DNA of 64,000 bases, from the IMG/VR virus record IMGVR_UViG_3300033073_000554, positions 1-64,000 of that record, one strand, 5' to 3'. The position numbers were made by a program, and so were the translations under genes. Under the pieces are notes generated by a model. That model was not told the DNA's origin. It saw only the letters and a list, made by a program, of their open reading frames with translations, and did no database searches. Below are positions 9,391 to 31,172 of this stretch, piece after piece; positions within the stretch are counted from its first letter, which is position 1, and each line of letters begins with the position of its first letter. The DNA comes from a virus. Its lineage: Duplodnaviria > Heunggongvirae > Uroviricota > Caudoviricetes.

Positions 9391-10212
9391 TTAAATTGTA
9401 TCGATATACTCATCTGGCATATCTGAATTTATTTTGTCCAAACACGCATCTTTAACATCTGCTAGCATATCTCTAACCGTTGGATAATTAGGCTTTAGAT
9501 ATGTTGAAATATCTACATTATCATTACCAATAGTATTCCATGTCGCATTTAAATGCTTTAGCATACTATTAGCCAACACTATTGCTACTTCCTTTATGGC
9601 CACTCCCTTGGATACTAAATGGTCAAAATCTGATAATTTCAATCTGCCACCCTTTGATGGTACATTAAACATAGTAGCTAGATCGGACCAAGTAGATGCA
9701 TTAGCAGTTTCAGTAACATTTTTCTTCGTCACTCCCATTTTTTCGGTGACAATTTTATTCTCTGATTTAGTCGGAGTAATTGGTACCTTAGTATATCTCC
9801 AAAACCAATCTGTTACACCATGCGGTTGAGATTTAAAATTTACATTGACTGCTTGTTCTGGTGTTAATCTCTCGAATGTTCCCAAATCTTCCGTCGACCC
9901 ATCTTTGTAAACATTATGGGCGCGAACACTTCCAATTGGTTTAACCAAGTAGGCATCTTGGTCAATATCTGGATCATTTATAAGTCCTAATAAAATTTTT
10001 GATAGATCTGATCTAGATATTATTACAAATGATTCTTCTGGAGTTCCCTCCCACCAACCGTGCGACGCTTCTATTTTACCTAAGAATTTAATTTTATGTA
10101 GTAATTTCTCGTTTCTAGCCTCATTCACATCTTTAGATAATTCAGTTTTATAGGCTGATATTATATAAAGGTTGACGCTTGGGTCGCTATTAAATTGCTC
10201 AATTGCAGTCAT
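9391..10212 (-). CDS. hypothetical protein (273 aa, early-class)
   Basis: preceded by conserved promoter element copy 3. Confidence 0.55.
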   Translation of the reverse strand: MTAIEQFNSDPSVNLYIISAYKTELSKDVNEARNEKLLHKIKFLGKIEASHGWWEGTPEESFVIISRSDLSKILLGLINDPDIDQDAYLVKPIGSVRAHNVYKDGSTEDLGTFERLTPEQAVNVNFKSQPHGVTDWFWRYTKVPITPTKSENKIVTEKMGVTKKNVTETANASTWSDLATMFNVPSKGGRLKLSDFDHLVSKGVAIKEVAIVLANSMLKHLNATWNTIGNDNVDISTYLKPNYPTVRDMLADVKDACLDKINSDMPDEYIDTI

Positions 10213-10261
10213 AATTTATCTTTTATAATACGTACAACAGTGTACCGTTATAAATAGTTCC
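10213..10261 (-). promoter_or_regulatory. conserved promoter/leader element copy 3
   Basis: GGAACTATTTATAACGGTACACTGTTGTACGTATTATAAAAGATAAATT-ATG; same GGAACTA(-50)/TATAAAA(-16) spacing. Confidence 0.5.
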
Positions 10262-10273
10262 AAAGATCTTAAA

Positions 10274-12154
10274 TTATTTTGACCTCACTTCCAAATCATC
10301 CATTATCCTCAGTATATCGCGACATTCGATATTTGTTGGAATATAATTCTCGGTAAGAATTTTATTAATCAATTCCTCAACCCATTCATCGTCAAACGTA
10401 GTACTATCTGGGAGTGATTCACATATGGCTAATAATCTAGGTTTAATTTTTATCTTCTCAATATATGAATATACCCTAACATCTTCGGATATATCTAATT
10501 CAAATTTGATTGGTGGTGGAATGGCGTCAACTGGAGGTGGGGTATAATTATTTAATGACTTCGAATCAAACATCTGAGTTAACACAGATGTCTTCTGCAT
10601 TAAAGTCTTGGCTAATAAGGCATCTATACTACCATCTACAACCATATATTTTATGAGAACATTACCCACTTGCCCGATACGATGGATACGGTCCTCTACT
10701 TGGAGCATTATCCCCGGCGTCCAATCCATTTCGATGATCAATGCCACACTTGCAGCCGTAAGTGTGATACCAACCCCAGCAGCCCGCGTTCCACCTAAGA
10801 ATATTTTACATAATGGATCTGTCTGAAATCTATCAACCGCATCCTGTTTTTCAGAATCAGACATACCCCCATATAACTTAACTGAACTTATTGATGTATA
10901 ATGTTCGTATAACTTATCAATAACTTCTCTATGATGTGCAAATACTACTACTTTGTCGGTGTTAACTAGTATATCGTCAATTTGCGATATAGCGTCTGGA
11001 ATCTTAGCAAGTGCAGTAGCCTTCCGATATGCAGTCATTTCAGTAATATCACTGTAATCCATGTGCGATAAAAATCCAATAATATCATCATACTCCATCA
11101 TGTCCATGGCAGATTTTGATATCAATTTAGATTCTTTATCTATTAATTTATTATATTTTGAAGGATCACAGTAGACAATTTGTCTGGTCTTTGGTGGTAA
11201 TTCGGTTAATACGTCGGCTTTTAACCTTCGTATCATACAAGTTTGCCGTAATTTATATTGTAATTCATCTAAATTAGATGCCCCTTTGGTATTTAATCCG
11301 AACTCACCTTCAGTTGCATCACAATATCGGTTTATATAATCGAAGTATTTTATATCATATTTCAAAATGGTTAATAGATTATATAGTTCAATGGGTCTAT
11401 TTAAACTCGGCGTACCAGATAATAGTATTACCTTATCACTATTTGGGTCTACGCGCTTCACTAGGCGTTTAAATGCCTTGGATCGTTGGGTAGATCCCTT
11501 TTTTAAATAGTGTGCTTCATCGGCTATTATACAGTCAAATTTAATGTTCTTATCTGACATCCAACTTAACTTGGGAGATATTAGCATGTCATATGATACG
11601 ATGTATATATTTGCGTTCCGAGGATGATAATTTTTACCAGAAATTATTTGGATTTTATAGTCATCAAAATCTACTAACCACGTTTTCAATTCTTTCAACC
11701 AATTATAAGTTAGTGTTGCTGGGCATACTATTACAGTTTTAGTGTATCTTTTATAATTTATAACACCGATTGCCATACAGGATTTACCAAGCCCCATCTC
11801 GTCTGCAATTAAAACCCGGTTCACATTTAGAGCATAGTTCACCCCTATAACCTGATAATCATAATATTTTACCCCATCTGGAACTGGTATATCAATTAAC
11901 TCAGTTGTTACTTTATTGATATTGTGCTCACTGGATAAATTTAGTCTACTTATATTAACTTCTTCTAGACATTTTAAACTATTCTTGATATCATTAGACA
12001 TGTAGTTTTCAAGACGTTTAGCTACATCCAGATTATTGGTTTCCCACCTTTTGTCCAATGGATTCCAACGCATTCCGGCGGCTTTAGGTATCTCTTTGGA
12101 ATAATAGTCACCTACCCAAATGTATGTGTTACCTACTATATCAACGTGAGGCAT
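10274..12154 (-). CDS. SNF2-family (DEAD/DEAH-box) helicase
   Basis: motifs LIADEMGLGKS (Walker A), DCIIADEAHYLKK (DEAH), LLSGTPSLNRPIELYNLL (SNF2 motif), C-terminal helicase domain with QVEDRIHRIGQ. Confidence 0.8.
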   Translation of the reverse strand: MPHVDIVGNTYIWVGDYYSKEIPKAAGMRWNPLDKRWETNNLDVAKRLENYMSNDIKNSLKCLEEVNISRLNLSSEHNINKVTTELIDIPVPDGVKYYDYQVIGVNYALNVNRVLIADEMGLGKSCMAIGVINYKRYTKTVIVCPATLTYNWLKELKTWLVDFDDYKIQIISGKNYHPRNANIYIVSYDMLISPKLSWMSDKNIKFDCIIADEAHYLKKGSTQRSKAFKRLVKRVDPNSDKVILLSGTPSLNRPIELYNLLTILKYDIKYFDYINRYCDATEGEFGLNTKGASNLDELQYKLRQTCMIRRLKADVLTELPPKTRQIVYCDPSKYNKLIDKESKLISKSAMDMMEYDDIIGFLSHMDYSDITEMTAYRKATALAKIPDAISQIDDILVNTDKVVVFAHHREVIDKLYEHYTSISSVKLYGGMSDSEKQDAVDRFQTDPLCKIFLGGTRAAGVGITLTAASVALIIEMDWTPGIMLQVEDRIHRIGQVGNVLIKYMVVDGSIDALLAKTLMQKTSVLTQMFDSKSLNNYTPPPVDAIPPPIKFELDISEDVRVYSYIEKIKIKPRLLAICESLPDSTTFDDEWVEELINKILTENYIPTNIECRDILRIMDDLEVRSK

Positions 12155-13774: not shown

Positions 13775-14392
13775 TTATATTAAATTTGGTTTCATTCCAA
13801 TATGATATAATACATCTCTATTAGTCGTCTGTATTACTATCTCTGTAAAATTATCAAAGTGTATCATAGCACACACGTGTATTATACTAACTGCAAGTGC
13901 GATATTATATTTTGATGAACTGATAAAATCTAATGGTAGAGTTACAACTGGATAACCATTTACAACTGCCGCATGTAACGCATCCATATACATAAACATT
14001 AGTTGCTCATAGTCTTGCCATTCTGCTGCGTCACCTTCGATATCTGGTGAAATTATGAACAATAAATCATATACCTCACTTTCCAATTGGATCAATAAAG
14101 GAATATCTTCATCTTCTTCATCCTCATAACTTTCGAATTCTTCAAGATCTGATACTAATTCATCCATACTATCTGGATTAATCATATTCCTAATCTCAGA
14201 CTCATCATTAAGATTATTCATTACTGATTGATAGTGGTCCACTGCCGACGTAATAACATCACCATGTGTTTTCATTAACTCTGAATACCTACCATCAGTA
14301 TATATGTTTAAATATGTACTAGGTATAGGATTCACTAATAACCCCACAGACTCGAATAATGTTGGATCTATTACAATGGATAATTTAGCCAT
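13775..14392 (-). CDS. hypothetical acidic protein
   Basis: 205 aa with a poly-acidic stretch EEFESYEDEEDEDIP. Confidence 0.45.
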   Translation of the reverse strand: MAKLSIVIDPTLFESVGLLVNPIPSTYLNIYTDGRYSELMKTHGDVITSAVDHYQSVMNNLNDESEIRNMINPDSMDELVSDLEEFESYEDEEDEDIPLLIQLESEVYDLLFIISPDIEGDAAEWQDYEQLMFMYMDALHAAVVNGYPVVTLPLDFISSSKYNIALAVSIIHVCAMIHFDNFTEIVIQTTNRDVLYHIGMKPNLI

Positions 14393-15260
14393 AGCTTTTT
14401 ATTCTTTTTAAAGGTGGACACAGTTCATGATTATCTCTGAACTCGCAAAACATACAGTTATTATCATTCTTACCAGATTCTGCTGCAAATACTGTTGTGA
14501 CATTTCTAGACCCATCATCATTAAACCCACGCTCTATAAACTCGTTAAATTCTTTAACTATTTTAGCGGTATAAAGTTCATCGTTTTTTATAGGTAATAT
14601 TGTAACCAGTGATGGTGTAGATGGTTTCCGCTTCAAAATAAAATATTCAACGTCGATTGTATCAATTGGAATATTATATAAAATACTATAAAAATATTTA
14701 TATAATATCAATTGTGCAGTCTTACTTTCATCATTTATTTGAAATCTATTCCACCCATCTTTAGACGTTTTATAATCTTGAATCGTTACTCTACCATTTT
14801 TTCGTTTCTTAACTACATCTAGAAATGCTACAAATTTTATATTCGGTTTGTTTAAACTTGGAAATATTTCAATCGGCAACTCTATATCAACGGATTCGAC
14901 GTCGGTGAAGTCGTAATATGTTAACCATCGCTCGTGTATAAAATTAACTATATTTACACCATCCAAGTAAATTTCAGTTAACTCTTCTGGTGATGAGAAA
15001 ATCTGCTTAAATTTGTTCAATTCTTCGGTGAACACTGTATGCATATTTTCAAATAAGAGTTCAACCATATTTAATTTCGGTTCTCCATTTTCGAACACAT
15101 CCAACATATATGACTGGAGTGTGTTATGCATGGCGGTACCGAAAACTGTATGCACAGATGGAGTTTTAGATCTTAATTTCTTAGCATATGCTAATTGCCA
15201 CCGATGTTTACATGTTTTCCATAATGAAAACTGACTATATGAAACTTTAATTTCATTCAC
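14385..15260 (-). CDS. Cas4/RecB-like PD-(D/E)XK exonuclease (Fe-S type)
   Basis: QDYK (D-x-K) motif, QLILYKYFY (QxxxY motif), one N-terminal Cys and a C-terminal C-x2-C-x8-C cluster (CMFCEFRDNHELC). Confidence 0.55.
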   Translation of the reverse strand: MNEIKVSYSQFSLWKTCKHRWQLAYAKKLRSKTPSVHTVFGTAMHNTLQSYMLDVFENGEPKLNMVELLFENMHTVFTEELNKFKQIFSSPEELTEIYLDGVNIVNFIHERWLTYYDFTDVESVDIELPIEIFPSLNKPNIKFVAFLDVVKKRKNGRVTIQDYKTSKDGWNRFQINDESKTAQLILYKYFYSILYNIPIDTIDVEYFILKRKPSTPSLVTILPIKNDELYTAKIVKEFNEFIERGFNDDGSRNVTTVFAAESGKNDNNCMFCEFRDNHELCPPLKRIKSYG

Positions 15261-15570
15261 CAGATCTCATCTTGGTTAAATAAACCTTCGTGTAATTACG
15301 AAGTTTACCAACTAATTCTAAATATTCATCACTTGATCCACTGAATACTGTAATATCGTAACATAACTGATCTATACTACTTTTCAATGAATTACACGAC
15401 TCTGAAATATCTACAATATCTGGGAACGCGTTTGATGATTTTGGGGTAGTCTTAACTTCAGCTGCACATGCTAAACGATTCACATCATTTACAAAGTCAA
15501 CAGTAGCTTTGATAATTTTCTCGGTGGATCCATATTTTTCAACGGTCTCCTGTTCTATTCTTCTTAACAT
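15253..15570 (-). CDS. hypothetical protein
   Basis: 105-aa ORF. Confidence 0.4.
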   Translation of the reverse strand: MLRRIEQETVEKYGSTEKIIKATVDFVNDVNRLACAAEVKTTPKSSNAFPDIVDISESCNSLKSSIDQLCYDITVFSGSSDEYLELVGKLRNYTKVYLTKMRSGE

Positions 15571-15571
15571 A

Positions 15572-15898
15572 CTAATCTATTTTAAATATTTTTTGATTTT
15601 TCATTGATTCGGATTGTCCTAATAGTTTAGATTCTGGAACATTATCAATTCCAAGTATTTCCTCTGGCGTACCGATACCAGCTGGAAGATCTCTGTTTAA
15701 TAAATTACCGCACTTGTCGCATTTCCATATTGGAATTGGAACCGTCAACGGTCTTGGACCACCAGTTATTATTTTGGATATTTCTCTCAATAAATATACC
15801 ATTACAAATGTGGTTCCAGTACATTTTGGGCACTTTATCGCAGTGGAATCTTCAATTTTTATATCTAGATTCATTGAATGTTGCATACCGTCTTTCAT
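15572..15898 (-). CDS. zinc-ribbon protein
   Basis: two CxxC pairs (CPKCTG ... CDKCGN). Confidence 0.45.
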   Translation of the reverse strand: MKDGMQHSMNLDIKIEDSTAIKCPKCTGTTFVMVYLLREISKIITGGPRPLTVPIPIWKCDKCGNLLNRDLPAGIGTPEEILGIDNVPESKLLGQSESMKNQKIFKID

Positions 15899-16937
15899 TC
15901 ACTTTTTTTATTATTTCTAAAAATTTATTCTGATCAAAATACATCTTACCATATCTGTCTGCGTGATCATACAATTTCATAGATTCTTCACTATAATTTG
16001 CAATGTATTTATTTACAATATTAGCGATTTCATCTCTACGTTTCACATAGGTTAGAAATGGTTTTCGGACTATCGCGCCATCATATAAATACTCGTCTGG
16101 CATCGTTTCCTTGTATACACCAGTATCTGGAGCAATTGGAATACATCCGAAGCATAACCCCTCATATATACATGTAGGATCCGACTCTGTTGTATCAATA
16201 GATAATACTATCTTAGCCCGCATAAGAATGTCGTAATATTCATTTCTTGATAACCTTAATTCACAGCTGTCTATTATAGTATAATCTGGGAACATTCTCC
16301 TGATTGCTACTAAAACATGTTGAACGTGTGGATCATAAGTTGTATGTGGGATAATAATTAAATCCTCTTTATTCAGCGTATCAGGATACGATTCACGCAG
16401 TTTATGTATATTAATTGGATACCCGAGTACTGCCGCATACATCGTATCTTTATAGCGATGCAAACCATAAAATTTATCACGTATCCGTTCCGAAAAAAAT
16501 ATGTTCATATCATAGGCTCTGAATAGGGCACGTTCGGTAGCGTTCGCCCAATCTTTCTCTCTCCTAATCATCGCCGATCTCATCCTATTACTAGGATCAT
16601 ACATCCCATCTCTCCATATCCCCATATACTTGATATTATTCAATTTTAGAATATCAACCATTCTACGCAATTGAATCACATTTACATCCCACGCATTCGA
16701 AAATATAAACATGTCACCATCATTTATTTTTTCTAATATCATGTATTGATATAAAGCATTAAACTGGGAACCTTTATATGCGATGTTGGCAATCATATCA
16801 TTTTGAGTGGCTATAGTAGTTGTACCAGAAATGACGTTAACATCGTATCCATATTCACGTAACATCTCTGGTACAGTTGTTGTATAGTGGTCTAAATGCC
16901 TATACCCAATATCATATGAGTCTATGATATGTATCAT
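15852..16937 (-). CDS. putative GT-B glycosyltransferase (GT1/GT4-like)
   Basis: C-terminal domain has the GT1-type motif ESDPTCIYEGLCFGCIPIAPDTG (E-x-FG-x-EA-x-G-x-P-like). Confidence 0.5.
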   Translation of the reverse strand: MIHIIDSYDIGYRHLDHYTTTVPEMLREYGYDVNVISGTTTIATQNDMIANIAYKGSQFNALYQYMILEKINDGDMFIFSNAWDVNVIQLRRMVDILKLNNIKYMGIWRDGMYDPSNRMRSAMIRREKDWANATERALFRAYDMNIFFSERIRDKFYGLHRYKDTMYAAVLGYPINIHKLRESYPDTLNKEDLIIIPHTTYDPHVQHVLVAIRRMFPDYTIIDSCELRLSRNEYYDILMRAKIVLSIDTTESDPTCIYEGLCFGCIPIAPDTGVYKETMPDEYLYDGAIVRKPFLTYVKRRDEIANIVNKYIANYSEESMKLYDHADRYGKMYFDQNKFLEIIKKVNERRYATFNESRYKN

Positions 16938-17367
16938 ATTAATTAACTACCTTGACGATTTTAGACTTATCAACGCCCGTTACTACCCAGTCGTTTGGAA
17001 ATCCTTTGAAATCTTCATACATCTTCGCTTCGGCTTCGGTTACACTCATTGCATCTACTAAGTATAACTCGGTGGTATCCTTTGGACCCTTTTCCGTGTC
17101 AGTAGTTATTTTAACTTTAACATTGTAAAACATAAATAAAAAATTTTATTGTGATTAAATAATTATTGAATATTTGTTAGATATCTCAGCCCCAGATAAG
17201 TATTCAGAGTATCCAGTGTACTGCTCTAATGCATCTTCGACTACAACTAGGTACATCCCCTTGTGCCCGGTGCAAATTATGTGAATCAATTCTGGTTGAT
17301 CTGGTCGATCATCTAAAAATGATCTAATTCTAGATGGAGTAACTTCAGTATAATTTCCCATTTGTTT

Positions 17368-18105
17368 TTAAATTACTGGTAATAAATAAGTTGATATAGT
17401 ATCATTTGCATATGTAAATTTTAACTTCAATAGTATATTACTATAGATTGATATATCCACTATATTTGATTTTTTATTTAAATCGAATACTTTCTGAATT
17501 ATATCTAAATCTAGATTGACGTTGTAGTTTGAATTTATAGTATGGTTTATGATAACTGGTATTTTAATTTCTCCGAAACTTTCAGATTCTTCAGTTTGGG
17601 AAATTTTAAAATGTAATTCAGACGTTTCGATAGACGTATTTATATTTATTTTACTGCATCCACTCATTGACTTAGTAGTTGCAAGTATAGATTGGATTTT
17701 CTTTGAATCCATTACCATATCTATTCTATCACCGTCTATCAATGCAGCTTTTGGTCTAAATATTTTAGCGCATTGTGATTCTTGATCGATATAACAAGAT
17801 GCTTTTAGTGATGTATCACTATCTTCAATCTTTAATATTGGTCCGAAATTATTTTCAAGTGTTGTATTTTCTCCACAGTTATTTAATATTTGTAATATTT
17901 CAGATACCTGTGGGATACAAATTTTACCTTCAAGTTTTATAGATGGTTCATACTTAGATTCGATCACACCTGTAATCCTAGCTTTAGATTCTATAAATTC
18001 GAGAATTACAGTATTGTCGGAACTCTGATGTATAAAATTTACTTTATCTATATCAGAAGTAACTTGACATAACTTAAATAGCCCATGTAATTTTGTTACT
18101 TTCAT
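17368..18105 (-). CDS. hypothetical protein (245 aa)
   Basis: ORF. Confidence 0.45.
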   Translation of the reverse strand: MKVTKLHGLFKLCQVTSDIDKVNFIHQSSDNTVILEFIESKARITGVIESKYEPSIKLEGKICIPQVSEILQILNNCGENTTLENNFGPILKIEDSDTSLKASCYIDQESQCAKIFRPKAALIDGDRIDMVMDSKKIQSILATTKSMSGCSKININTSIETSELHFKISQTEESESFGEIKIPVIINHTINSNYNVNLDLDIIQKVFDLNKKSNIVDISIYSNILLKLKFTYANDTISTYLLPVI

Positions 18106-18165
18106 AAGTGTGGTGCAAATATATAAAAAAATATTGGATATATTCTAATATTTATTGAAAAATAT

Positions 18166-18459
18166 TTAATTTGGCATAAGATGCGCTCCACAATGATTAC
18201 ACGATATTAATATTCTACTGACTGTATTCAAACAGAATGGGCAACGCTTAAAATCCGTATCATATGTATCTCTACATCGTGATGAACCAGATTCATTTTC
18301 CAATATATAGTTCGCACCTTCAATAAATCCATCTTCATAACTTTTATGATCATATTTATGGCTACTTATAAATTGTGAGCGATCTGCTGCTTCACGTGCC
18401 GCATCTTTTATATCTTCCATATTAATTATTTTGTAATTTTTCACCTCGCACATCATCAC
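18166..18459 (-). CDS. small zinc-ribbon protein
   Basis: CPFCLN ... CNHCGAHL. Confidence 0.4.
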   Translation of the reverse strand: MMMCEVKNYKIINMEDIKDAAREAADRSQFISSHKYDHKSYEDGFIEGANYILENESGSSRCRDTYDTDFKRCPFCLNTVSRILISCNHCGAHLMPN

Positions 18460-18632
18460 AATTTTTTATACCCCATCCAATCACCTTGTCGTATACTTTC
18501 TCCATATCAGATTTTACATCATCATATACCTCAACATTCTGATAACATCTTCTACTAAGTCCACAAAATATACGATATAATCCAATGGATTCTTCTTTGC
18601 CAAAATTTAATTCGTTTTTCATGGTGTCATTT

Positions 18633-19772
18633 TTAAAAATTGTTTCGAATTGCTTCATATATTCCATTATAATTATTTACACCACCATCTGGAATTGGAT
18701 CCAATACTGGAATTACATTAGCATTAGATAGTTTTCTAATATATGAATTATCTTTGAAGTAACCTTCACGCAATTCCTTTCCTTTATGCACATATGTTAC
18801 CAATGTTCCACCGAATAATGCAGACAATATTGAATTGCCTCCACACACTGATATATAATGTGTAGCATTAGCCATTATTCTCAACTGTGCTTCATTGTAT
18901 CGCATTTCGAAATTGTTCGCGCGATATCTAATATTTTCAACTTCATCGTCCATGGTAGTAACCCCTTTAGATTTCCAAGATTCTACTAATCCAAAGTCTG
19001 TGAGCATTTCTGGTTTCCACGAAGTTCTATCCATGGCTACTATATTAGTAAACCCTAGATTTAGAGACTGTATTTCATTTTCATCATAGGCAAAATGTTT
19101 TTCAGTATTTCGTGTTCTCTTATATATTACTTTGTATCCCTTATCTGTTAACATTGTAAACATTTTCCCTAAACACTCAATATCGAAAAACCCACGCGGT
19201 CTTTCACCATGTTCTATATTGTATTTATTAGTGATTATCACCGTTTTCCGAGTATCCGTTGTAAATGCGTTACTGAAATGTTCTTTAAATGGTGGGCATT
19301 CCCATTCAGTATAATCTAATACGCCGTTTACTTCAATTTTTTCTTCAGCTGATAATTGTTCGTAATCTACACCCTTCAACGCGATTGCATTATGGTGTAT
19401 CCATGAATTTGGGCAAGTGTGTAGCCCGGCTAATTCATTGTCGATAGTCCGTTTATTGTAATATTCCATTACATTATCGCAGAAATAGTAAAATGGTTTC
19501 ATCTCAATTGATGTTTTAACACTTTCTAATAATCCACGTAAATGTAAAGAGTATGCGTATGGAACGCATAAAGCAAGTTCGATCCCGAACTCTGGTCTAA
19601 AATCTAAATTTATTCCTTTGTTTATCATTTTATAAAGTTGAGAAGATGTTTTATCTAATAATTCCTGATTAACTCCACCATGCGTCATAGTATTTCTATC
19701 TTTAGCGTCAAAATCATAAAGTTTTATTAATTCGTCGTAAGTTGGTATATCATACCATCGTTGATTAGTCAC
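18633..19772 (-). CDS. hypothetical protein, possible glycosyltransferase
   Basis: 379 aa; the C-terminal segment SVCGGNSILSALFGGTLVTYV resembles GT-B nucleotide-sugar-binding regions; weak. Confidence 0.35.
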   Translation of the reverse strand: MTNQRWYDIPTYDELIKLYDFDAKDRNTMTHGGVNQELLDKTSSQLYKMINKGINLDFRPEFGIELALCVPYAYSLHLRGLLESVKTSIEMKPFYYFCDNVMEYYNKRTIDNELAGLHTCPNSWIHHNAIALKGVDYEQLSAEEKIEVNGVLDYTEWECPPFKEHFSNAFTTDTRKTVIITNKYNIEHGERPRGFFDIECLGKMFTMLTDKGYKVIYKRTRNTEKHFAYDENEIQSLNLGFTNIVAMDRTSWKPEMLTDFGLVESWKSKGVTTMDDEVENIRYRANNFEMRYNEAQLRIMANATHYISVCGGNSILSALFGGTLVTYVHKGKELREGYFKDNSYIRKLSNANVIPVLDPIPDGGVNNYNGIYEAIRNNF

Positions 19773-19875
19773 TGCATACGTTTTATATCATCTTTAAATA
19801 ATCTAAAAACTGAATACATAAATACGGCAAGTATTAACCCACCTATTAAATCATATATTTGATCTGGCGTTAAAT

Positions 19876-20586
19876 TCATCGTTTTACCATTTTAATTACT
19901 TGAAATGCTTCAGCCGCACCACATCCAGCCTGAATGCCGCGATATTGTGCTAATATAGCTAAATTTGCTACAACGTCGAGACCTATATTACGGTATTTAT
20001 CTATTTGACTTTTATGCGCCAATGATGCTTTAATTTTACCATTGAAGGTATCGGAGATATCGACATAATAATGTGCGTCCATATTATTTTCAGACAGCCT
20101 AGCTATTGGTATTTGCTCATAACATAACACATTTTGTACATATCTAGCGGCTGCCATTGTTATTCTGAAAGTTGCTATATGATCTTGGTTAGCGTCACCA
20201 GCCCAATGTGTGTATATAATAGATGGTTTATGTTTTTTAATTATTTTTTCAAGCTCAGATATATTTTCAAAGTTAAACTCAAGGTGTAAATCTGCATTCG
20301 TAAGTGTATAGCACTTTTTAACCTTTAATACTTTACAAGCCGCTGTCAATTCATCGTTTAACTGAGTTAAACTTCTAATTACTTTTTTATTTTTTGAAGT
20401 ACCATCTATGGATGGAGTTCCAGTCATGCATACATATATAATTTCATATCCTTCTTCAACGTGTTTCAATAATGTTCCACCACACCCAAATTCTATATCA
20501 TCTGGATGAGCACCAATTGCCATAACAACCTTATGTTTATTAGATTTATTTTTCATTGAGTAATATTTTTCTACTTTCTGGACCAT
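19876..20586 (-). CDS. PIG-L/LmbE-family N-acetylglucosaminyl deacetylase
   Basis: N-terminal signature MAIGAHPDDIEFGCGGTLLKH (AHPDDE motif), ~230 aa. Confidence 0.8.
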   Translation of the reverse strand: MVQKVEKYYSMKNKSNKHKVVMAIGAHPDDIEFGCGGTLLKHVEEGYEIIYVCMTGTPSIDGTSKNKKVIRSLTQLNDELTAACKVLKVKKCYTLTNADLHLEFNFENISELEKIIKKHKPSIIYTHWAGDANQDHIATFRITMAAARYVQNVLCYEQIPIARLSENNMDAHYYVDISDTFNGKIKASLAHKSQIDKYRNIGLDVVANLAILAQYRGIQAGCGAAEAFQVIKMVKR

Positions 20587-21235
20587 GATTAAAAATCAAA
20601 TCCATAACAGTTAGATATGGTATAAATGGTTCAAATCTTTGTTTATATACTGGATGATCATAGTGTTGCCATATCAGTTCAATATTATTATCATCGAAGT
20701 CTTTTTGGAATATATATCGTAGTGACCCAGCACCAGACCCTGAGATATATGATGTAGCACCAAGCTCTTTTAAAATATTCATTATTCGTACCCCACCTGT
20801 TCCAATAGCTTTTAAATCTGAACTATAAACTATCTCAGTTTTAATATCCAATATTTTGAATATCAATTTTATTATAGTCATGTTCACATCAACTAAATAT
20901 GGTTGAAAATTCATGGCTTCAAATAATGCATCGCTATAATCATTATAGAATGGGCACTTAGAATAAAATGTTGCAAAATATTCTTTATGTAATTCTAAAC
21001 GATTACTATGAATCAATTCGACATCTCTGAATTGTCGCTCCAGTTTATGCCTATTGATATGCATTGCTATTATTTTATCCCCCGTGTTTGTTCGTATCTT
21101 ATTACGGTTTCCAAAATGCTTTTTACCAACTGGATATTGAACATCGTCAAATACTACCCAGATATCACTTTTGATTATTTTATCAAAATAACCAAGCCAT
21201 GGAAGATAATTTGGTTGATGTATACTTACTCGCAT
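20546..21235 (-). CDS. WbqC-like family protein
   Basis: characteristic N-terminus MRVSIHQPNYLPWLGYFDKI and ~230-aa length. Confidence 0.75.
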   Translation of the reverse strand: MRVSIHQPNYLPWLGYFDKIIKSDIWVVFDDVQYPVGKKHFGNRNKIRTNTGDKIIAMHINRHKLERQFRDVELIHSNRLELHKEYFATFYSKCPFYNDYSDALFEAMNFQPYLVDVNMTIIKLIFKILDIKTEIVYSSDLKAIGTGGVRIMNILKELGATSYISGSGAGSLRYIFQKDFDDNNIELIWQHYDHPVYKQRFEPFIPYLTVMDLIFNHGPESRKILLNEK

Positions 21236-21418
21236 GCTACACTATCTTTTTTAATGTTTATATTCGATATTAAAACTTCTTCTTTTTGATCATTTTGAGC
21301 GCATCCCCAACATATATCATCTGGCATTCCAAATATTGTCAGATTAATTTCATCGCTGCATACTTTACATTTCATAATAACTATTTTTCACGTATAATAC
21401 CCAATTTTAACGGATATT

Positions 21419-21850
21419 TTAGATATACTCAATTTCGTTCACTTCTGGATTTTCAACCAATGTGATCTTAAAGTAATCTGGGTACGTATCTAAAATATCA
21501 ATTGATAATCTAACACCATTATATTCGATATATGTGTCGTTGAAAATAATTTTAGATTTACCACTGATATCAAGTTCTTCAGTGTATGGTAAATATATAA
21601 TATCTCCCTTCATCATTCCCGGAAATGTTGTAACCACCTCAATTCGTTTTGCCATGGTTGGTACAACACTTATTATATGATTTTGAAGTAATCTAAATTT
21701 AGTATCCCTTGATACTTCTAAATCTCGTATGTGGGATCCACTAATTTTCACATTCTCCTGATATTCAATGCCGTCTATCGTGCAGTGACAAATAGTGTAA
21801 AGTGATACATTTCCATTATCAAGATAATCTCTAGTAATAATTTTTTTCAT
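21419..21850 (-). CDS. hypothetical protein
   Basis: 143-aa ORF. Confidence 0.45.
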   Translation of the reverse strand: MKKIITRDYLDNGNVSLYTICHCTIDGIEYQENVKISGSHIRDLEVSRDTKFRLLQNHIISVVPTMAKRIEVVTTFPGMMKGDIIYLPYTEELDISGKSKIIFNDTYIEYNGVRLSIDILDTYPDYFKITLVENPEVNEIEYI

Positions 21851-21861
21851 GTTAATTTATT

Positions 21862-22227
21862 TTAATATTTAAAAATTTTAATTGATTCTATATTATGTTC
21901 CTTGGCAATATTGATCATATGCATCGTTCCTCGACTCTCTCCATCCCAAAATGCTATCAATCCATCAGCGTATTCAGCCATTTGAACATTTCTCTTATAA
22001 CCAGCACTATTTCCAAAGAAGTGCCAATGTGCTGGAAAATATTTAACTGGATATCCTCTGGATTCAGCATATGCTTCTCCCATCTTATCAGCTCCAGCAG
22101 CTAGTCCACATACAATTTCAATAGTTTCACCTTCGGCTAATTCAATACTTGATATTACTTCATCACAACTCTTAACTAAATAATCATAGTCATTGAAATT
22201 TCTACCTCCAGCTATTATTATCTTCAT
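21862..22227 (-). CDS. DUF2493 / SLOG-family (LOG/DprA-like Rossmann) protein
   Basis: MKIIIAGGRNFNDYDYL ... IVCGLAAGADKMGEAYAE, ~120 aa, typical of the phage DUF2493 family. Confidence 0.6.
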   Translation of the reverse strand: MKIIIAGGRNFNDYDYLVKSCDEVISSIELAEGETIEIVCGLAAGADKMGEAYAESRGYPVKYFPAHWHFFGNSAGYKRNVQMAEYADGLIAFWDGESRGTMHMINIAKEHNIESIKIFKY

Positions 22228-22330
22228 AATATATGTTTATCCAATAAATAATATTAGTAACTTTGCAAAAGCTATTCCAGCAATTATAGCTAATATTATT
22301 GAAACTACTAATTTTATAATTGATGATTTA

Positions 22331-22591
22331 TTAGTTTCCATTTTGTAGGTATTTTTTAACTTCTGACTCATAATCAAAATCATGATTATTGATTAGTTTT
22401 TTATCGTTTAAATAAACTAAAAAATTAACTAACTGTCCACTTCTACTACTTACATCTGGTTTGTGTAATTTAGTTTGTGCAACCGAAATAACAATTTCGA
22501 GTAATTCATGCTGCCACTGAGTTAGTGCCTTATCATCATAATATAATGCGTCTATAATATTTTGCGCTTTTTGTAATTCTCTATTATCCAT
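22331..22591 (-). CDS. hypothetical protein
   Basis: 86-aa ORF. Confidence 0.35.
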   Translation of the reverse strand: MDNRELQKAQNIIDALYYDDKALTQWQHELLEIVISVAQTKLHKPDVSSRSGQLVNFLVYLNDKKLINNHDFDYESEVKKYLQNGN

Positions 22592-22599
22592 ATAATTAG

Positions 22600-24060
22600 T
22601 TATATCGAATGATCATATACATTTGGTTTCCCATTTCCATTATTTTCAGTTATCACGAATCCACCAGTAGATGTATAACCAAGGGTTTCTGAATAAAAGT
22701 TCCCCGTAAACAATGCGGGTAATACAATTTTCCTATAATTCGCTTCATCATCTGAAACTGCTACATATGTGTTGAACATCAATGGTCTATTAACTTTAGT
22801 TTTATGGGTATGTCTACTATGAATATGTCCTGATAGCCACAATGTAAAGACATTCGTAGATCCGAATAAATTCACCATTTTACCAATATCTTTCTTGTCC
22901 ATTTTGAAATGACCATGTGTTAATAGATAACATATACCATCGATCGTCGGTCTTAAACAATAAGTGTGGTAATTAAATTTGATACTTTGCATTTTCAGAC
23001 TCAATATATGAGACAATAATTCTGCCGCACCTCCTTCATTGTCAATATCAGCTTGTGGAGTCAATCTATCATGGTTCCCAGATATAACATTAACTTCGGC
23101 TAAATTGTTTATTTTATTTAAAAAATCTCCGATCATTGTTGCGGCAAGTATGATGACCTTTGCACCATACATGCCTTTACCCAATGATTTAAATGTATTT
23201 AAATGGTTTAACCCAGATATTGATTCAAAATAATCCCCTAGCATATTCACGTGCACTTGCGAATACCCATAACTATTGATAACGGTCGCAATTCGATCTA
23301 AATATCCAACCAAAATATCAGTATTAAAATCTGGAGTCAATATTAAGTCGCTAACATCTGCCCCAATGTGAAAGTCTGCTAAATTTAATACTCCAACGCC
23401 TCTTGTTGGATTATGATTTACTGGGTTGTGTCTAAAATTTTCTATTGAAATTAATACGTCGTCAATTAGTTTCTGGTATTCAATCTCTGGATTCTTTTCA
23501 ATCGGTTTAAATTTAATCCAGCATCCATAATTTGTTATAGTAACTGGAACTAATACTTTAGTATCAACACTATCGATATTTTGAATTTCTTCAACTTTCA
23601 TTGTTACATCCCACGAATTGAACCCATGAGATTCTACTCTCCACACATTTAAATCGACCTTCGAAAATTCTAGCGCATCTTCAAGTGATTGTATAGATTT
23701 TGTAGTTTTACCTTTAAATATGGCTTCAGTATCTGTTACATTAAATTCCCTTTGTCCACCAGCTGGAGTGGATTGATTTAAGTCAATTGCCAAATGTGTC
23801 GGTGCTCCACTTCTAGTAACCGTATTATCAGTTTCATCGGTATTGGATGAAATGTGCATTCTACCAATATACTGATCTACGGTGTATCCAGTTTTTGAAA
23901 AATTTTTCCACAATTTTCTAACTCTTTGACCAACTACTGAAGATGGTTCGACTCCGTATAATTTTTCCAATTCTACCCATGACCTGTCTGATTTACCATT
24001 GGTAAGCATCTCATTTAGAAATTCTCTTACACCACGTTTAGGATTATTTATTTTTCTCAT
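22600..24060 (-). CDS. calcineurin-like metallophosphoesterase with ~200-aa N-terminal extension
   Basis: motifs LADFHIGADV (D-x-H), MLGDYFES (GD-x-x-D/E), GNHDRL (GNHD), LTHGHF and SGHIHSRH (GH-x-H). Confidence 0.7.
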   Translation of the reverse strand: MRKINNPKRGVREFLNEMLTNGKSDRSWVELEKLYGVEPSSVVGQRVRKLWKNFSKTGYTVDQYIGRMHISSNTDETDNTVTRSGAPTHLAIDLNQSTPAGGQREFNVTDTEAIFKGKTTKSIQSLEDALEFSKVDLNVWRVESHGFNSWDVTMKVEEIQNIDSVDTKVLVPVTITNYGCWIKFKPIEKNPEIEYQKLIDDVLISIENFRHNPVNHNPTRGVGVLNLADFHIGADVSDLILTPDFNTDILVGYLDRIATVINSYGYSQVHVNMLGDYFESISGLNHLNTFKSLGKGMYGAKVIILAATMIGDFLNKINNLAEVNVISGNHDRLTPQADIDNEGGAAELLSHILSLKMQSIKFNYHTYCLRPTIDGICYLLTHGHFKMDKKDIGKMVNLFGSTNVFTLWLSGHIHSRHTHKTKVNRPLMFNTYVAVSDDEANYRKIVLPALFTGNFYSETLGYTSTGGFVITENNGNGKPNVYDHSI

Positions 24061-24062
24061 AG

Positions 24063-24521
24063 TTATATTTTAGTTGTTGATATAGATTCCAAATTAAATT
24101 CCCGATCATTCTGATATGAATTTTCGATATCCGCAGTCATATTCATGATACTTGTAGTAATGGTATTCCACATTATTTTAATCACTTCTTCTATTGATGC
24201 GGTTTTACACGAAATGAAATTGATCTTAGATTCTACGGTTTCTAATAATGATATATTCGGATCAGTCGCGTCTATTAAAATTGATCCATCAAACATTTTC
24301 ATATATGCATCAAATGATACGTTAGGTGATATATAAAATCTACTTATAATATCATCCGGGCGTATTTCAGATCCATTCAATATACGAAACTCAAATTCAA
24401 AATCATATGAGTTTAAATTTAACTTGTTTTCTTTAAATATACCAATTCCAATTGGGTTATCTACGCCAATTAAATACGTATATGTAAAATCCTCGTGTAA
24501 TGTTGTCTTTTTTAGTTTCAT
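24063..24521 (-). CDS. hypothetical protein
   Basis: 152-aa ORF. Confidence 0.45.
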   Translation of the reverse strand: MKLKKTTLHEDFTYTYLIGVDNPIGIGIFKENKLNLNSYDFEFEFRILNGSEIRPDDIISRFYISPNVSFDAYMKMFDGSILIDATDPNISLLETVESKINFISCKTASIEEVIKIMWNTITTSIMNMTADIENSYQNDREFNLESISTTKI

Positions 24522-25900
24522 GTCGTTCCAGTTCCTATGTATTGTTGTTGTTCAAAAATATTATTTAATTTTAATTTTGTCTCACTTTCCATTTTTTCAT
24601 CTGCCGCCTTCATTCTACCAACTATATGACTACCCTGTGTACTCTTAGGTTGAACTACATCTATTATGCCCTTATTTGTATCCATGGTTGATACAAAAGT
24701 CATCCCATCTCTACCTAACCTATTTTTCACGATGTGTATCTTAGCAGTATTAGCTACTTTATCTGAATCTTTTCGTGTTAACGATATCATGAAATCCGCT
24801 GTATGATGTTTACCAATCGATTCGGAAATTTTATCTGCTCCAATGACATCTTCAGCATATGAATCCCTAGTACTCTGCGATGCAGTCCACAATGGAATCA
24901 TATATTCTCCAGCGAGTCCACGGAGTTGTTGATATAATACTCGTAATCGCTGGTCCGTTCTATCTCTTTCATTCCCACCCAATTCCATTAGATCTGCGTA
25001 ATCTAATACAACCATATCTGGTTTATTACCAAGTAAAATCGATTTATCTATGAATGATCTGAGGCCATTTATTGATAATGTATTTTCGGCATACCATTTT
25101 ATTTCAATTTTACCAGTCAACTCGGAATATTTAGCCTTCACTTCATCTAAATGTGCACTCATATACATCGATGGTATATTAGTTAATATAACATCATGTC
25201 TGATTGCTACATATGTTTCCATCAATTCTAAAGTGACATATAATACATTATACCCAGCTTGAGCTGCGGAGAGAGAAATGTGTTGAAGGAGCCACGATTT
25301 ACCAGAACCGCCCGGTCCGACTACCACACCCAGTTCCCCCGGTCCAAGCCCACCCAAAATTATCTCGTTTATACATCCCCACCCAGTAGGTATATATTTC
25401 CTATTGGCAACATCATATCGATTCTCCAACGTTTCAAAATAACTATACGATATATCATTTGATTCTCCGGCTTTAGTAGCTGCATCTATCAAATCACGCA
25501 TCTTGTCCCAATTATTCGTAGGAAGTATATCTATACATTTATAGATTGCATCCTTGAATTTTTGCTCCTTAAAAAAATTTTGGGATTCCTTTTTTATTAA
25601 ATCTAAATCGGTAGAACCGATATTTGTATAAACAGTCTCTAAAGAATTGATTATTTCGATTCTACTTATCTCACTCTCAATTCGATTGATACCTATTTTA
25701 AACGCATCTAAAGTTGGTAAACTTCGGTATTCATTAAAATAGTTCAACGTATAATCCGCAATCCACGTTAATGCTTGAGATTCTAACTGATCTGGTAAAA
25801 ATAAGTCGCACATCCTACTAGTGTAAGACACATCTGTTATCAGAGATGACAATAATTTTACCTGAAATGTATATCCGTAATCAACTAACTTCTCAACCAT
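24518..25900 (-). CDS. DnaB-family replicative helicase (T4 gp41-like)
   Basis: Walker A VVGPGGSGKSW, followed by NVLYVTLELMETYVAIR (compare gp41 NVLYISMEMAEE), RecA-like C-terminal domain, DnaB-like N-terminal domain. Confidence 0.8.
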   Translation of the reverse strand: MVEKLVDYGYTFQVKLLSSLITDVSYTSRMCDLFLPDQLESQALTWIADYTLNYFNEYRSLPTLDAFKIGINRIESEISRIEIINSLETVYTNIGSTDLDLIKKESQNFFKEQKFKDAIYKCIDILPTNNWDKMRDLIDAATKAGESNDISYSYFETLENRYDVANRKYIPTGWGCINEIILGGLGPGELGVVVGPGGSGKSWLLQHISLSAAQAGYNVLYVTLELMETYVAIRHDVILTNIPSMYMSAHLDEVKAKYSELTGKIEIKWYAENTLSINGLRSFIDKSILLGNKPDMVVLDYADLMELGGNERDRTDQRLRVLYQQLRGLAGEYMIPLWTASQSTRDSYAEDVIGADKISESIGKHHTADFMISLTRKDSDKVANTAKIHIVKNRLGRDGMTFVSTMDTNKGIIDVVQPKSTQGSHIVGRMKAADEKMESETKLKLNNIFEQQQYIGTGTT

Positions 25901-29407: not shown

Positions 29408-29830
29408 CTATTTTGTGTTATCTAATAATATTAATGGCATTCCTATATCTTCACTATCTGTGATATCGATATTCAGTAAAAATCTGTCTCGATATATATC
29501 CCACTGTATTTGATACTCATGATCCATAGTATTATTATTCGATCGTATTATTATTGCATTTAACGCATTTATTGTATAAAGTGTGTTCGTATATGATTTT
29601 CTATGTATTTTTATAGTGTTATCGTGTACATATTTATTTGATGAATCTACGTAATATATACATATTACTCCATCTCGTGTGTATAAATTTTTATATATGT
29701 CAATGTTTCCAATAGTTTCTGGTATTTTTTCATGTAATAAATCGGTTGTATTTTTTAAGTTTTTAATATTTACAAATGTGCATAATATAGTCTTACGCGG
29801 CTGAGTTATTTTTAAGTTTTCCGACAACAC
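29408..29830 (-). CDS. hypothetical protein
   Basis: 140-aa ORF overlapping the polymerase gene's 3' end by 38 nt. Confidence 0.4.
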   Translation of the reverse strand: MLSENLKITQPRKTILCTFVNIKNLKNTTDLLHEKIPETIGNIDIYKNLYTRDGVICIYYVDSSNKYVHDNTIKIHRKSYTNTLYTINALNAIIIRSNNNTMDHEYQIQWDIYRDRFLLNIDITDSEDIGMPLILLDNTK

Positions 29831-31172
29831 TGTTCATATCTCCGTATTTTTTTCCGAATTTTATTTTAACTGGATATCCAGATTGTTCTAATATTTTCTG
29901 GATTTCCACCAATATATTCGAATCATCTGTATTATCGTAATCTATTAAAAATGCATCATATGTATACAAGATTAACTTACTACTATACGGATATAAATAT
30001 GTCTGTATTTTTTGCAACGATTTTATGTTCTGTTCGGTCTCGGCAGCTTGCTGAAGATATGAGAATAATTTACCCTTTGTCATCTCTACCAATTTAGATG
30101 ATTCGAATTTTCTACCACCTAATGTAGTCGCGTACCCATCTCTTTCAAAATTACTCCACATCTCATTTTTATATATTTCAACTTGCTTGAAGAAATCTAT
30201 ATACGAGTAAGTTGTTTCTACCTCACCATATAATTGTTTAAATGTTATCCTCTTTGACTGTTCATATTGCTCTGTATTCAATTTATCTATTCCAAAATAA
30301 TATTTTCCAAGATGCTCGTGCACATTTTCATCTAAATCAAACTTATATCCGATCAATGATGCTATTAAACGTACATGATACCCATCATAATCGTATTCAA
30401 ATAATGTTCCATCTTGCCCAAATCTGGATATTATTATATTTCGATAGTTATCATCTTTTCTCATAGAATTAAATGATATTCGATCATATTTAAATGATGG
30501 TCTACCAGTCAATGTTTTAATATTTGAAATAGGATGAATTATTCGGTCGTTTAGTTTAACACCATATTTTTCTTCAGTTAATTCTGGGTCTAAGCATATT
30601 CCAACCGACTCTATATTTGAACAAACTGATTGGTATAATTGAATATACAAATCACTGAATTCTGTCGGCGTATATTTATCAATATATTTAAGTGAGCTAT
30701 TAATAATTTCCTTACACACTTGCATATGATGACTGATTGGAATTATATTATTAAAATTTGGATATGCGTTATACCACTCAGCATATAAATTATCTACATT
30801 AACTAATTGGGTAGATATTGGTTCAAGATTAATTGAATAATTAAACCATAAATATATATCCAGATCTATAACATAAGACCTATGAATACAATTAGATATA
30901 TATGACTTATTATAGATATACTTAATACTATCCGAATTATTTAAAATAGAATATAAAACATTTATATCAAATTCATCTAAATCGAAATGATTTAATCCAA
31001 TCATACACGATTCATTTATATCTATAAAATGAATATACATGCATGATAATGTAGATGATTTATTGGACCAATGTATATATCTATCAGATAATATTGGAAT
31101 TATTATAATCGATGATGACGCATTAAGATTTTGTTCTAAATATTCAGGGGTTATCTCACTTGTCTTAATCAT
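29793..31172 (-). CDS. family-A DNA polymerase catalytic domain (minimal, no recognisable 3'-5' exonuclease)
   Basis: TLTGRPSFKYDRISFNSM (compare TGRLSSxDPNLQNIP), motif A-like LFEYDYDGYHVRLIA (DYSQIELR), motif B-like RITFKQLYGE (RxxxKxxxYG), motif C-like LYTYDAFLIDYD (HDE replaced by YDA); only 459 aa. Confidence 0.55.
   Translation of the reverse strand: MIKTSEITPEYLEQNLNASSSIIIIPILSDRYIHWSNKSSTLSCMYIHFIDINESCMIGLNHFDLDEFDINVLYSILNNSDSIKYIYNKSYISNCIHRSYVIDLDIYLWFNYSINLEPISTQLVNVDNLYAEWYNAYPNFNNIIPISHHMQVCKEIINSSLKYIDKYTPTEFSDLYIQLYQSVCSNIESVGICLDPELTEEKYGVKLNDRIIHPISNIKTLTGRPSFKYDRISFNSMRKDDNYRNIIISRFGQDGTLFEYDYDGYHVRLIASLIGYKFDLDENVHEHLGKYYFGIDKLNTEQYEQSKRITFKQLYGEVETTYSYIDFFKQVEIYKNEMWSNFERDGYATTLGGRKFESSKLVEMTKGKLFSYLQQAAETEQNIKSLQKIQTYLYPYSSKLILYTYDAFLIDYDNTDDSNILVEIQKILEQSGYPVKIKFGKKYGDMNSVVGKLKNNSAA

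Follow-up and report, generated by a model that had tools for sequence, protein, structure and literature searches.

In the synthesis of bacillithiol and mycothiol, a GT-B glycosyltransferase (GT; BshA or MshA) transfers N-acetylglucosamine (GlcNAc), an LmbE-type enzyme (BshB or MshB) deacetylates it, and a third enzyme (BshC or MshC) places cysteine on the amine of the glucosamine. Here we describe a viral locus in which genes for a WbqC-family protein, a PIG-L/LmbE zinc de-N-acetylase and a 379-amino-acid (aa) protein with a predicted GT-B fold, here called GT9L, follow one another; a second glycosyltransferase candidate, the 361-aa GT4L, is encoded nearby. The locus lies in a stretch of 64,000 nucleotides (nt), hereafter the window, which comprises positions 1 to 64,000 of the IMG/VR record IMGVR_UViG_3300033073_000554 (Caudoviricetes), a contig of 71.6 kilobases. 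An earlier note, made from the sequence alone, had described positions 15852-21235 as a single sugar-modification cluster of a T4-like phage, possibly serving DNA hypermodification, glycosylation of virion proteins or remodelling of the host surface. That unity was lost on comparison with related loci: comparative synteny separates the WbqC/PIG-L/GT9L trio from a replisome block that contains GT4L, so that two independent units are to be distinguished. As judged from gene order and sequence conservation, the cluster in the window is a reduced, maintained member of a widespread viral sugar cassette.

A number of other described systems bear on the interpretation of this locus. In the Wbp/Vim pathway of Porphyromonas and Tannerella, VimE deacetylates an amino sugar, after which VimA adds serine or glycine to the amine. 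With regard to phage DNA, Pyle et al. (2023) reported phage clusters for glycans on 5-hydroxymethylcytosine (5hmC), in which some GT-B enzymes resemble BshA/MshA and transfer N-acetylhexosamine (HexNAc) or heptose, and Lee et al. (2026) reported arabinosyl-5-hydroxycytosine of RB69 and DLP3 along with phage-encoded nucleotide-sugar synthesis. Finally, in the literature on pelagimyophages, GT8, rfaE and UDP-glucose dehydrogenase are named, and a modification of the host O-chain has been put forward.

The WbqC, PIG-L and GT9L proteins and their viral cassette

The peptides quoted in the earlier note lie where it had placed them, and the identities of the WbqC and PIG-L/LmbE proteins are unambiguous by Pfam (Table 1). 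The WbqC protein scored 188.4 bits against PF08889 (cut-off 21.3), with residues 7-223 covering positions 1-217 of the 218-position model, and showed no Pfam match beyond the WbqC family itself. The PIG-L protein scored 91 bits against PF02585 (cut-off 28.2); its best match in PDB is diacetylchitobiose deacetylase (5e-21), and its best match in NCBIfam, under the cut-off, is BshB1 (5e-23). It missed the equivalog cut-offs for BshB1 (82 versus 182.5 bits), BshB2 (59.8 versus 195) and MshB (23 versus 224) and is, on these scores, a member of the family rather than an orthologue of any of the three. Its AHPDD motif is intact, as is the second histidine of the HPDH motif, a zinc ligand that corresponds to H113 of 2ixd. 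The two GT-B-type candidates of the earlier note and their co-orientation with these genes were likewise recovered, all open reading frames (ORFs) of the region being on the minus strand, although neither candidate reaches a Pfam threshold alone.

GT9L has 485 homologues, mostly of about 314 aa and from marine metagenomes, and no Pfam domain was found in GT9L or in its 120 listed homologues. An AlphaFold model based on a 36-sequence alignment (predicted local distance difference test 86, predicted template modelling score 0.82; low confidence for the first approximately 50 residues) shows the two Rossmann domains of the GT-B fold, and the folds closest to it are those of lipopolysaccharide (LPS) heptosyltransferases. 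Membership of GT9L in family GT9 (PF01075) was rejected at the level of sequence, with no Pfam match, an hhalign comparison to WaaC that gave an E value of 0.15 and a probability of 0.4%, and CGGN at the position of the DTG of WaaC. A pattern scan found the family in 63 IMG/VR loci versus a single match in 185,579 species genomes, which suggests that GT9L is essentially virus-restricted. The sole cellular match lies on a 140-kilobase (kb) contig (CAYLSF010000001.1) of a Saprospiraceae metagenome-assembled genome (MAG), which may be bacterial or a mis-binned phage. A GT9L-like region of approximately 566 residues, 30% identical, was also observed in a giant-virus MAG (IMGVR GVMAG-M-3300014493-9, 10001-11699).

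For the 379-aa ORF, the GTG start given in the annotation is doubtful, because a related contig, L108, has a different leader ahead of the conserved PEFGIELAL of GT9L and because the 36-aa ORF that precedes GT9L is conserved in both. The start codon of this small ORF and the stop codon of PIG-L share nucleotides (ATGA), and an ORF of similar sequence and of equal length and position is present in L108, to which the window is 84% related. The conserved core of GT9L begins near residue 52, and its true start is likely M29 (19688) or M49 (19628).

To define the gene neighbourhood of GT9L, ORFs were clustered across 72 loci (63 from IMG/VR, the metagenomic contigs L001-L007 and L012, and the window). 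The commonest gene order was SDR-SDR-DegT-WbqC-PIG-L-(radical SAM)-GT9L-GT2; SDR genes were present in 67 of the 72 loci, GT2 in 64, PIG-L in 46, WbqC in 41 and DegT in 40, and Pfam matches, precomputed or newly run, agree with these assignments. Approximately 14 loci (e.g., L057:8325-9545) carry an alternative cassette, in which DegT-WbqC-PIG-L is swapped for a sugar C-methyltransferase (Methyltransf_14/13, E = 2e-27) and another SDR, followed by GT9L. Since two versions precede GT9L, the cassette upstream of it appears to be swappable and, as far as gene order indicates, GT9L is the constant element after whatever nucleotide-sugar cassette a virus carries. Around the cassette are found a UDP-glucose-dehydrogenase-like gene, DUF2334, a GFO/DAO fusion and an APS-kinase-like gene, as well as three abundant, unannotated flanking families that look GT-like, and the viral islands hold at least five GT-like genes. 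No flippase (Wzx), polymerase (Wzy) or initiating phosphoglycosyl transferase domain was present in any Pfam-annotated locus. In 22 IMG/VR loci, a gene at a distance of a few kb from the GT9L cassette encodes a 394-aa protein that matches the Druantia defence protein DruA (PF14236, E = 4.9e-22; L015:17320-18504, minus strand).

The window has the trio WbqC-PIG-L-GT9L without SDR, DegT and GT2 genes. Contig L012, which belongs to the same lineage (SNF2, SAM lyase, DUF6745), carries SDR-DegT-WbqC-PIG-L-GT9L, followed directly by a clamp-like gene, DUF4494 and a GT4-like gene, and L108, whose WbqC protein is 84% identical, shows the reduced arrangement exactly as in the window, including a 141-aa gene upstream. 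Between the window and L108, the ratio of nonsynonymous to synonymous substitution rates (dN/dS) is 0.10 for WbqC, 0.06 for PIG-L, 0.09 for RecA and 0.06 for the phosphoesterase, with dS at about 0.9-1.6. Because the same arrangement is kept in L108 and dN/dS is low, the reduced trio is probably functional on its own. The variable cassette found in dozens of large contigs of marine viruses is thus anchored by a virus-restricted GT-B family that lacks a Pfam model. If our reading holds, these viruses seem to produce unusual deoxy sugars of their own, aminoacylated or C-methylated.

Proposed chemistry and candidate acceptors

A predicted structure gives the WbqC protein the fold of a class I aminoacyl-tRNA synthetase (aaRS) catalytic domain, with BshC as the best structural match and MshC also among the matches. 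We take the name-giver of the family to be WbqC of the Escherichia coli O121 O-antigen cluster, as in the Pfam description. The E. coli O121 O antigen carries an amide-linked N-acetylglycine. Considering the fold, the gene neighbours and this glycan chemistry, we propose, by analogy, that WbqC proteins may be amino acid:amino-sugar ligases. If true, this would provide a testable function for WbqC (PF08889), which is widespread in O-antigen clusters, and would explain amide-linked amino acids on O-antigen sugars such as that of E. coli O121; no functional study of WbqC was found in the literature mentioning it, as judged by titles and abstracts. Among known phages, tblastn yielded no match to GT9L and only a fragmentary match to WbqC, beside a PIG-L gene, in Vibrio phages PG28 and VH2_2019, the papers on which are silent on DNA or virion modification. 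In the cultured Vibrio siphovirus vB_VpS_PG28 (MT735630; 7711-12976), PIG-L lies directly before the distant WbqC-like protein; three hypothetical genes come next, and then genes for a 503-aa glycosyltransferase and a ParB-like protein, the whole set being located between RecA/RuvC genes and the terminase. PG28 is a possible experimental model for the PIG-L/WbqC pair.

The family and fold assignments, the conservation of gene order and the purifying selection are shown. We infer the reaction order, sugar, amino acid, energy source and acceptor of a three-enzyme sugar-tailoring module with the logic of bacillithiol and mycothiol synthesis, a tentative proposal that we consider possible, if still short of probable. 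In a first step, a GT-B transferase, for which we propose GT9L, encoded immediately downstream of PIG-L, would use a host nucleotide sugar (in the simplest case UDP-GlcNAc) to put an N-acetyl-hexosamine on the acceptor; the PIG-L/LmbE zinc hydrolase would then take off the N-acetyl group, leaving a free amine, to which WbqC would couple an amino acid through an amide linkage, giving an N-aminoacyl-hexosamine glycoconjugate. The full cassette of related viruses would make a more elaborate diamino-deoxy sugar, of which the phage in the window would keep a minimal, self-sufficient version. The suggestion in the earlier note that a deacetylated amino sugar is involved has gained strength, as WbqC looks like a ligase for the amine that the deacetylase would free.

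Several points weigh against this module. The WbqC protein had no PDB match by single sequence or by profiles of 5 and 36 sequences, even at an E value of 10, and neither sequence-level homology to BshC/MshC nor their full architecture was found, the protein being 229 aa in length versus 540 aa for BshC and without the C-terminal half of the latter. No member of the WbqC family is known to have been assayed for enzyme activity, nor is BshC known to have been reconstituted in vitro; the term "ligase" is therefore taken from the fold. In the PIG-L protein, HPDH reads NQDH, as it does in 45 of 46 viral homologues, and the first histidine, here replaced by asparagine, is presumably catalytic in MshB; from its distribution, NQDH would be a family-wide trait of the viral clade and not a sign of decay. 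In the full cassette, moreover, WbqC follows DegT, and its natural amine might be a DegT-made 4-amino group, which is absent here. Finally, the trio is located in the replication module, not beside structural genes.

As no flippase, polymerase or lipid-carrier initiating transferase occurs with the cassette, the acceptor of the proposed module is probably cytoplasmic and phage-made. A phage protein or the virion is a tentative candidate for this role, and we lean slightly toward a virion or structural protein over DNA. One hint in this direction is a 766-aa protein (54929-57229, minus strand), encoded among the structural genes, that contains Chlorovirus glycoprotein repeats (PF06598, E = 2e-19) and is a candidate glycosylation target; further hints are the multi-GT islands, the GT9L homologue in the giant-virus MAG and cytoplasmic assembly without export genes. 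The interpretation in the earlier note is supported in part: its enzyme identities hold, and each of the targets that it named (DNA, virion proteins, host surface) is at most a candidate.

DNA hypermodification, in which the GT-B enzyme or enzymes would glycosylate a modified base and PIG-L and WbqC would turn the HexNAc into a charged sugar, amino or aminoacyl, as a barrier to restriction enzymes and other nucleases, is doubtful. It would agree with the location of the genes inside a replication/recombination module (DnaB-like, metallophosphoesterase, SLOG, clamp-like, PD-(D/E)XK, SNF2), as the T4 beta-gt and alpha-gt genes likewise lie among uvsX and genes 42, 43, 45 and 46/47, and with the fixed place of the GT4L family beside replication genes and, in some loci, TGT-like and GTP cyclohydrolase I genes (see below). 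Phage GT-B enzymes resembling BshA/MshA are reported to put hexose, HexNAc or heptose on 5hmC, and phages are likewise reported to encode nucleotide-sugar synthesis for DNA arabinosylation. However, the base-activating enzyme that would define an anti-restriction DNA modification, as envisaged in the earlier note, was not found: Pfam searches of most window ORFs of at least 100 aa and of smaller ORFs around the cluster, extended to 4.5 kb recovered beyond the left end (small ORFs without assigned function), revealed no thymidylate-synthase-like hydroxymethylase, hydroxylase, TET/5mYOX, C5-methyltransferase or TGT. The failure of the earlier note to see a hydroxymethylase in the window was thereby confirmed, and its suggestion to look for such genes further along the genome yielded none in these 4.5 kb. 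When T4 gp42, beta-gt and alpha-gt and E. coli Tgt served as phmmer queries on every six-frame ORF of the window and of approximately 110 related loci, nothing was retrieved either. In addition, GT9L and GT4L are acidic (median isoelectric points of 5.3 and 6.4, respectively) and without significant sequence relation to the T4 transferases, and related islands hold more glycosyltransferases than any known DNA glycan needs. The more specific version, in which the phage would decorate its own DNA with the N-aminoacyl-hexosamine, with GT4L as the DNA transferase and an acceptor base produced by a route other than thymidylate synthase or TET homologues, is unlikely; if true, such a sugar-amino-acid adduct of DNA would represent a new chemical class of DNA hypermodification and would provide a function for the WbqC family.

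Remodelling of the host envelope, by which the LPS core, O-chain or another surface glycan would be altered (e.g., to exclude superinfecting phages), we consider improbable. The LPS heptosyltransferase-like fold of GT9L, the occurrence of WbqC in O-antigen clusters and the interpretation that the pelagimyophage literature gives to LPS-like glycosyltransferases all favor it; that interpretation, however, was proposed without a test, GT9L fails the GT9 sequence tests, and neither the window nor its annotated relatives encode a flippase, polymerase, ligase or lipid-carrier initiating transferase. The near-absence of GT9L from cellular genomes also argues for a virus-specific acceptor. Still less probable is the synthesis of a soluble small molecule that would act on host physiology, either an aminoacyl-glucosamine conjugate akin to bacillithiol or mycothiol or some other metabolite. 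While BshA/B/C and MshA/B/C comprise exactly these three enzyme classes, the transferase beside the WbqC/PIG-L pair is GT9-like and not a GT4 of the BshA/MshA type, there is no sign of a cysteine-specific ligase, and the trio is mostly found in islands with more glycosyltransferases and with enzymes for deoxy-amino sugars, a setting that indicates a glycan and not a thiol. That the trio is a decaying remnant, no longer functional after loss of SDR-SDR-DegT, as might be supposed from the SDR and DegT genes that L012 keeps upstream of WbqC and from the longer cassette of most viral loci, was rejected on the basis of dN/dS and conserved synteny: all three ORFs are intact with family-invariant residues, and the reduced arrangement is kept in a relative at saturating dS (about 0.9-1.3) with dN/dS values (0.06-0.10) equal to those of core replication genes. 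Regardless of which candidate (virion, DNA or host surface) proves to be the target of the proposed N-aminoacyl-hexosamine module, the module is relevant to the ways in which abundant marine phages escape defence or recognition.

GT4L, the replisome block and the phage

GT4L scored 13 bits against Glycos_transf_1 (PF00534), below the cut-off of 26.4. It has three close homologues, and a profile search retrieved 785 cluster representatives; among 39 profile-linked relatives, 11 match Glycos_transf_1 at E values of 0.01 or less (best 6.5e-7) and seven match a PHROG annotated as glycosyltransferase. Its C-terminal domain contains an EX7E motif (E251-SDPTCIY-E259), which hhalign places on the EX7E of E. 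coli WaaG; E259 is near-invariant in the alignment of 39 sequences, and both E251 and E259 are near-invariant in 11 closer homologues. From these features we infer a GT-B fold, so that the fold assumed in the earlier note is supported for GT9L by a predicted structure and for GT4L by EX7E and sequence. A sequence relationship of GT4L to the T4 transferases was rejected, as hhalign against T4 beta-gt and alpha-gt was not significant.

Synteny of GT4L was assessed in 29 loci, obtained by a pattern scan built on the 11-sequence subset. DUF4494 is directly upstream of GT4L in 19 loci, and a 238-aa clamp-like family (21 loci), PD-(D/E)XK (20 loci), family B polymerase (19 loci) and an RFC-like clamp loader (19 loci) are found near it. 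Conserved gene order thus assigns GT4L to a replisome module, approximately 1.7 kb from the trio and not part of it, and its substrate may well be DNA. A TGT-like gene adjoins GT4L in 13 of the 29 loci. In this family GDSGGFQ is invariant; Pfam matches it weakly to TGT (E = 0.0015), hhalign aligns it collinearly with E. coli Tgt (E = 0.0036), and PDB gave no match by sequence or profile. Its identity as TGT is tentative. GTP cyclohydrolase I, the entry enzyme of 7-deazaguanine synthesis, is encoded nearby in six loci (1e-52). These neighbours suggest a link of GT4L to 7-deazaguanine-type DNA modification in the phages concerned, possibly an undescribed link between a glycosyltransferase and DNA modification; neither gene is present in the window. 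In the IMG/VR loci L091 and L095-L104 (e.g., L099:9388-12132), GT4L lies between a 119-aa family and the TGT-like family, with GTP cyclohydrolase I and a second GT4-like copy nearby, which by gene content looks like a glycosyltransferase embedded in an apparent 7-deazaguanine DNA-modification cluster; no paper describing such a cluster was found. Guesses that the 119-aa family is QueD-like and another neighbouring family QueE-like were not confirmed by Pfam.

The genes around the two units are listed in Table 1. The 245-aa possible clamp takes the position that the 238-aa family has beside RFC-like clamp loaders and family B polymerases in related phages. SNF2 helicase and SAM-lyase-like genes follow further on in the direction of transcription. 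A scan of positions 15000-22600 for promoters and terminators gave a signal no higher than the shuffled expectation.

Table 1. Gene layout of the WbqC/PIG-L/GT9L trio, the GT4L block and adjacent genes in the window
Feature	Coordinates	Strand	Remarks
DnaB-like helicase	24518-25900	-	
Calcineurin-type phosphoesterase (metallophosphoesterase)	22600-24060	-	
SLOG/YAcAr protein	21862-22227	-	
143-aa protein	21419-21850	-	No family match; kept upstream neighbour of WbqC, with a 141-aa ORF in the same place in L108-L110
WbqC-family protein, 229 aa	20546-21235	-	Pfam PF08889, 2e-55
PIG-L/LmbE zinc de-N-acetylase, 236 aa	19876-20586	-	Pfam PF02585, 1e-25; start overlaps WbqC stop by 41 nt
36-aa hydrophobic small ORF MNLTPDQIYDLIGGLILAVFMYSVFRLFKDDIKRMQ	19769-19879	-	Between PIG-L and GT9L
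GT9L, 379-aa ORF, glycosyltransferase-like, predicted GT-B fold	18633-19772	-	
Two small overlapping ORFs (81 aa; 97 aa with C-terminal zinc ribbon)	18166-18667	-	Between GT9L and clamp-like gene; weak DZR match and unannotated PHROG matches only, membership in the sugar module not shown
245-aa possible sliding clamp (tentative)	17368-18105	-	Weak NCBIfam match "DNA polymerase sliding clamp", E = 0.009
68-aa ORF		-	Between clamp-like and DUF4494 genes
DUF4494 protein, 64 aa	16939-17133	-	Pfam PF14902, 2.8e-10
GT4L, 361-aa GT4-like glycosyltransferase candidate	15852-16937	-	
PD-(D/E)XK nuclease	14385-15260	-	Two small ORFs between GT4L and nuclease

With regard to the phage itself, the window (approximately 33% G+C) encodes a T4-type structural set, including a Gp23-type major capsid protein (8e-72) and a tail sheath protein (phrog_23, 1e-69), as well as a tape measure protein, baseplate hub, 5'-3' exonuclease, PhoH, a gp32-like single-stranded DNA-binding protein (1e-10) and a RecA/UvsX-like recombinase (1.5e-38). 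The term "T4-like" used in the earlier note therefore holds for the structural core (gp23, gp18 sheath) and for gp32/UvsX, but not, in the sense of Straboviridae, for a gp43-type family B DNA polymerase or for DNA-level similarity to members, neither of which was found. The sole polymerase signal was a weak match to family A, under the cut-off (E = 7.6e-6), in a 459-aa ORF (29793-31172, minus strand); a 667-aa ORF adjoining it (31778-33781, minus strand) had no match, and the replicative polymerase is possibly highly divergent. When positions 15000-22500 (7.5 kb) were compared by blastn with 50,697 phage records, none covered more than 2% of the segment, the only matches being of 100-150 nt, all within the SLOG gene. 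The phage, a novel myovirus, has the structural core of the T4 type but is not T4-like in the strict sense. Three weak hints, which do not establish the host, point to Bacteroidota: the match of the SLOG gene to Cellulophaga phage phi18:3, the presence of DUF4494 and the location of the sole cellular GT9L match in a Saprospiraceae MAG.

Three further genes of the window were noted. A SAM-lyase-family protein (9391-10212, minus strand; PF23780, 29.8 bits versus a cut-off of 28) adjoins the SNF2 helicase, is conserved in L009 and L012, and has a possible anti-restriction role separate from the sugar genes. A 474-aa SPFH/Band 7 domain protein (1918-3342, minus strand; E = 8.5e-18) is encoded among small early-type ORFs, and a 407-aa protein of the PHROG transposase family phrog_506 (53548-54771, minus strand; E = 1.7e-129) is inserted among the structural genes.

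Comparison with known systems

Phage sugar clusters as such are already known; what is new here is a function proposed for WbqC on the basis of its fold, the GT9L family of viruses with its previously unannotated cassette, and a replisome-linked GT4L with TGT-like neighbours. Among the systems introduced above, bacillithiol and mycothiol synthesis share the three enzyme classes with the trio, which supports the same proposed reaction order. By contrast, the transferase of the phage is GT9-like, its WbqC has half the length of BshC and its deacetylase reaches 82 rather than 182 bits against BshB1; in addition, the phage module is viral and is usually found within a multi-GT sugar island. The Wbp/Vim pathway follows the same logic, in that a sugar amine is exposed by deacetylation and then aminoacylated, and thus represents an independent precedent, although its enzymes are non-homologous, VimE being a CE4 esterase and VimA acetyltransferase-like, as compared to an LmbE-type hydrolase and an aaRS-like fold here.

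The phage DNA sugar systems (T4, the 5hmC glycan clusters and arabinosyl-5-hydroxycytosine) resemble this locus in having GT-B enzymes among replication genes; they differ from it in their base-activating enzyme, a thymidylate-synthase homologue or a methyltransferase with 5mYOX, and in that no deacetylase or amino-acid ligase is given a role in the consulted parts of the reports on them. The LPS-like islands of marine T4-like myophages are similar in occurring on marine viral contigs and in combining deoxy-sugar genes with several glycosyltransferases, and the window has Gp23, sheath and PhoH genes; a WbqC-PIG-L-GT9L cassette is not mentioned in the searched passages of that literature. GT9 ADP-heptose heptosyltransferases (WaaC, WaaF, TibC) differ from GT9L, which has no PF01075 match and is essentially virus-restricted. 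Finally, the virion glycosylation systems of mycobacteriophages and giant viruses (Mimivirus, chlorovirus), in which viral sets of aminotransferases, dehydratases and glycosyltransferases act in the cytoplasm without host export, share these features with the viral cassette; the genes of the phage, however, lie apart from its structural genes.

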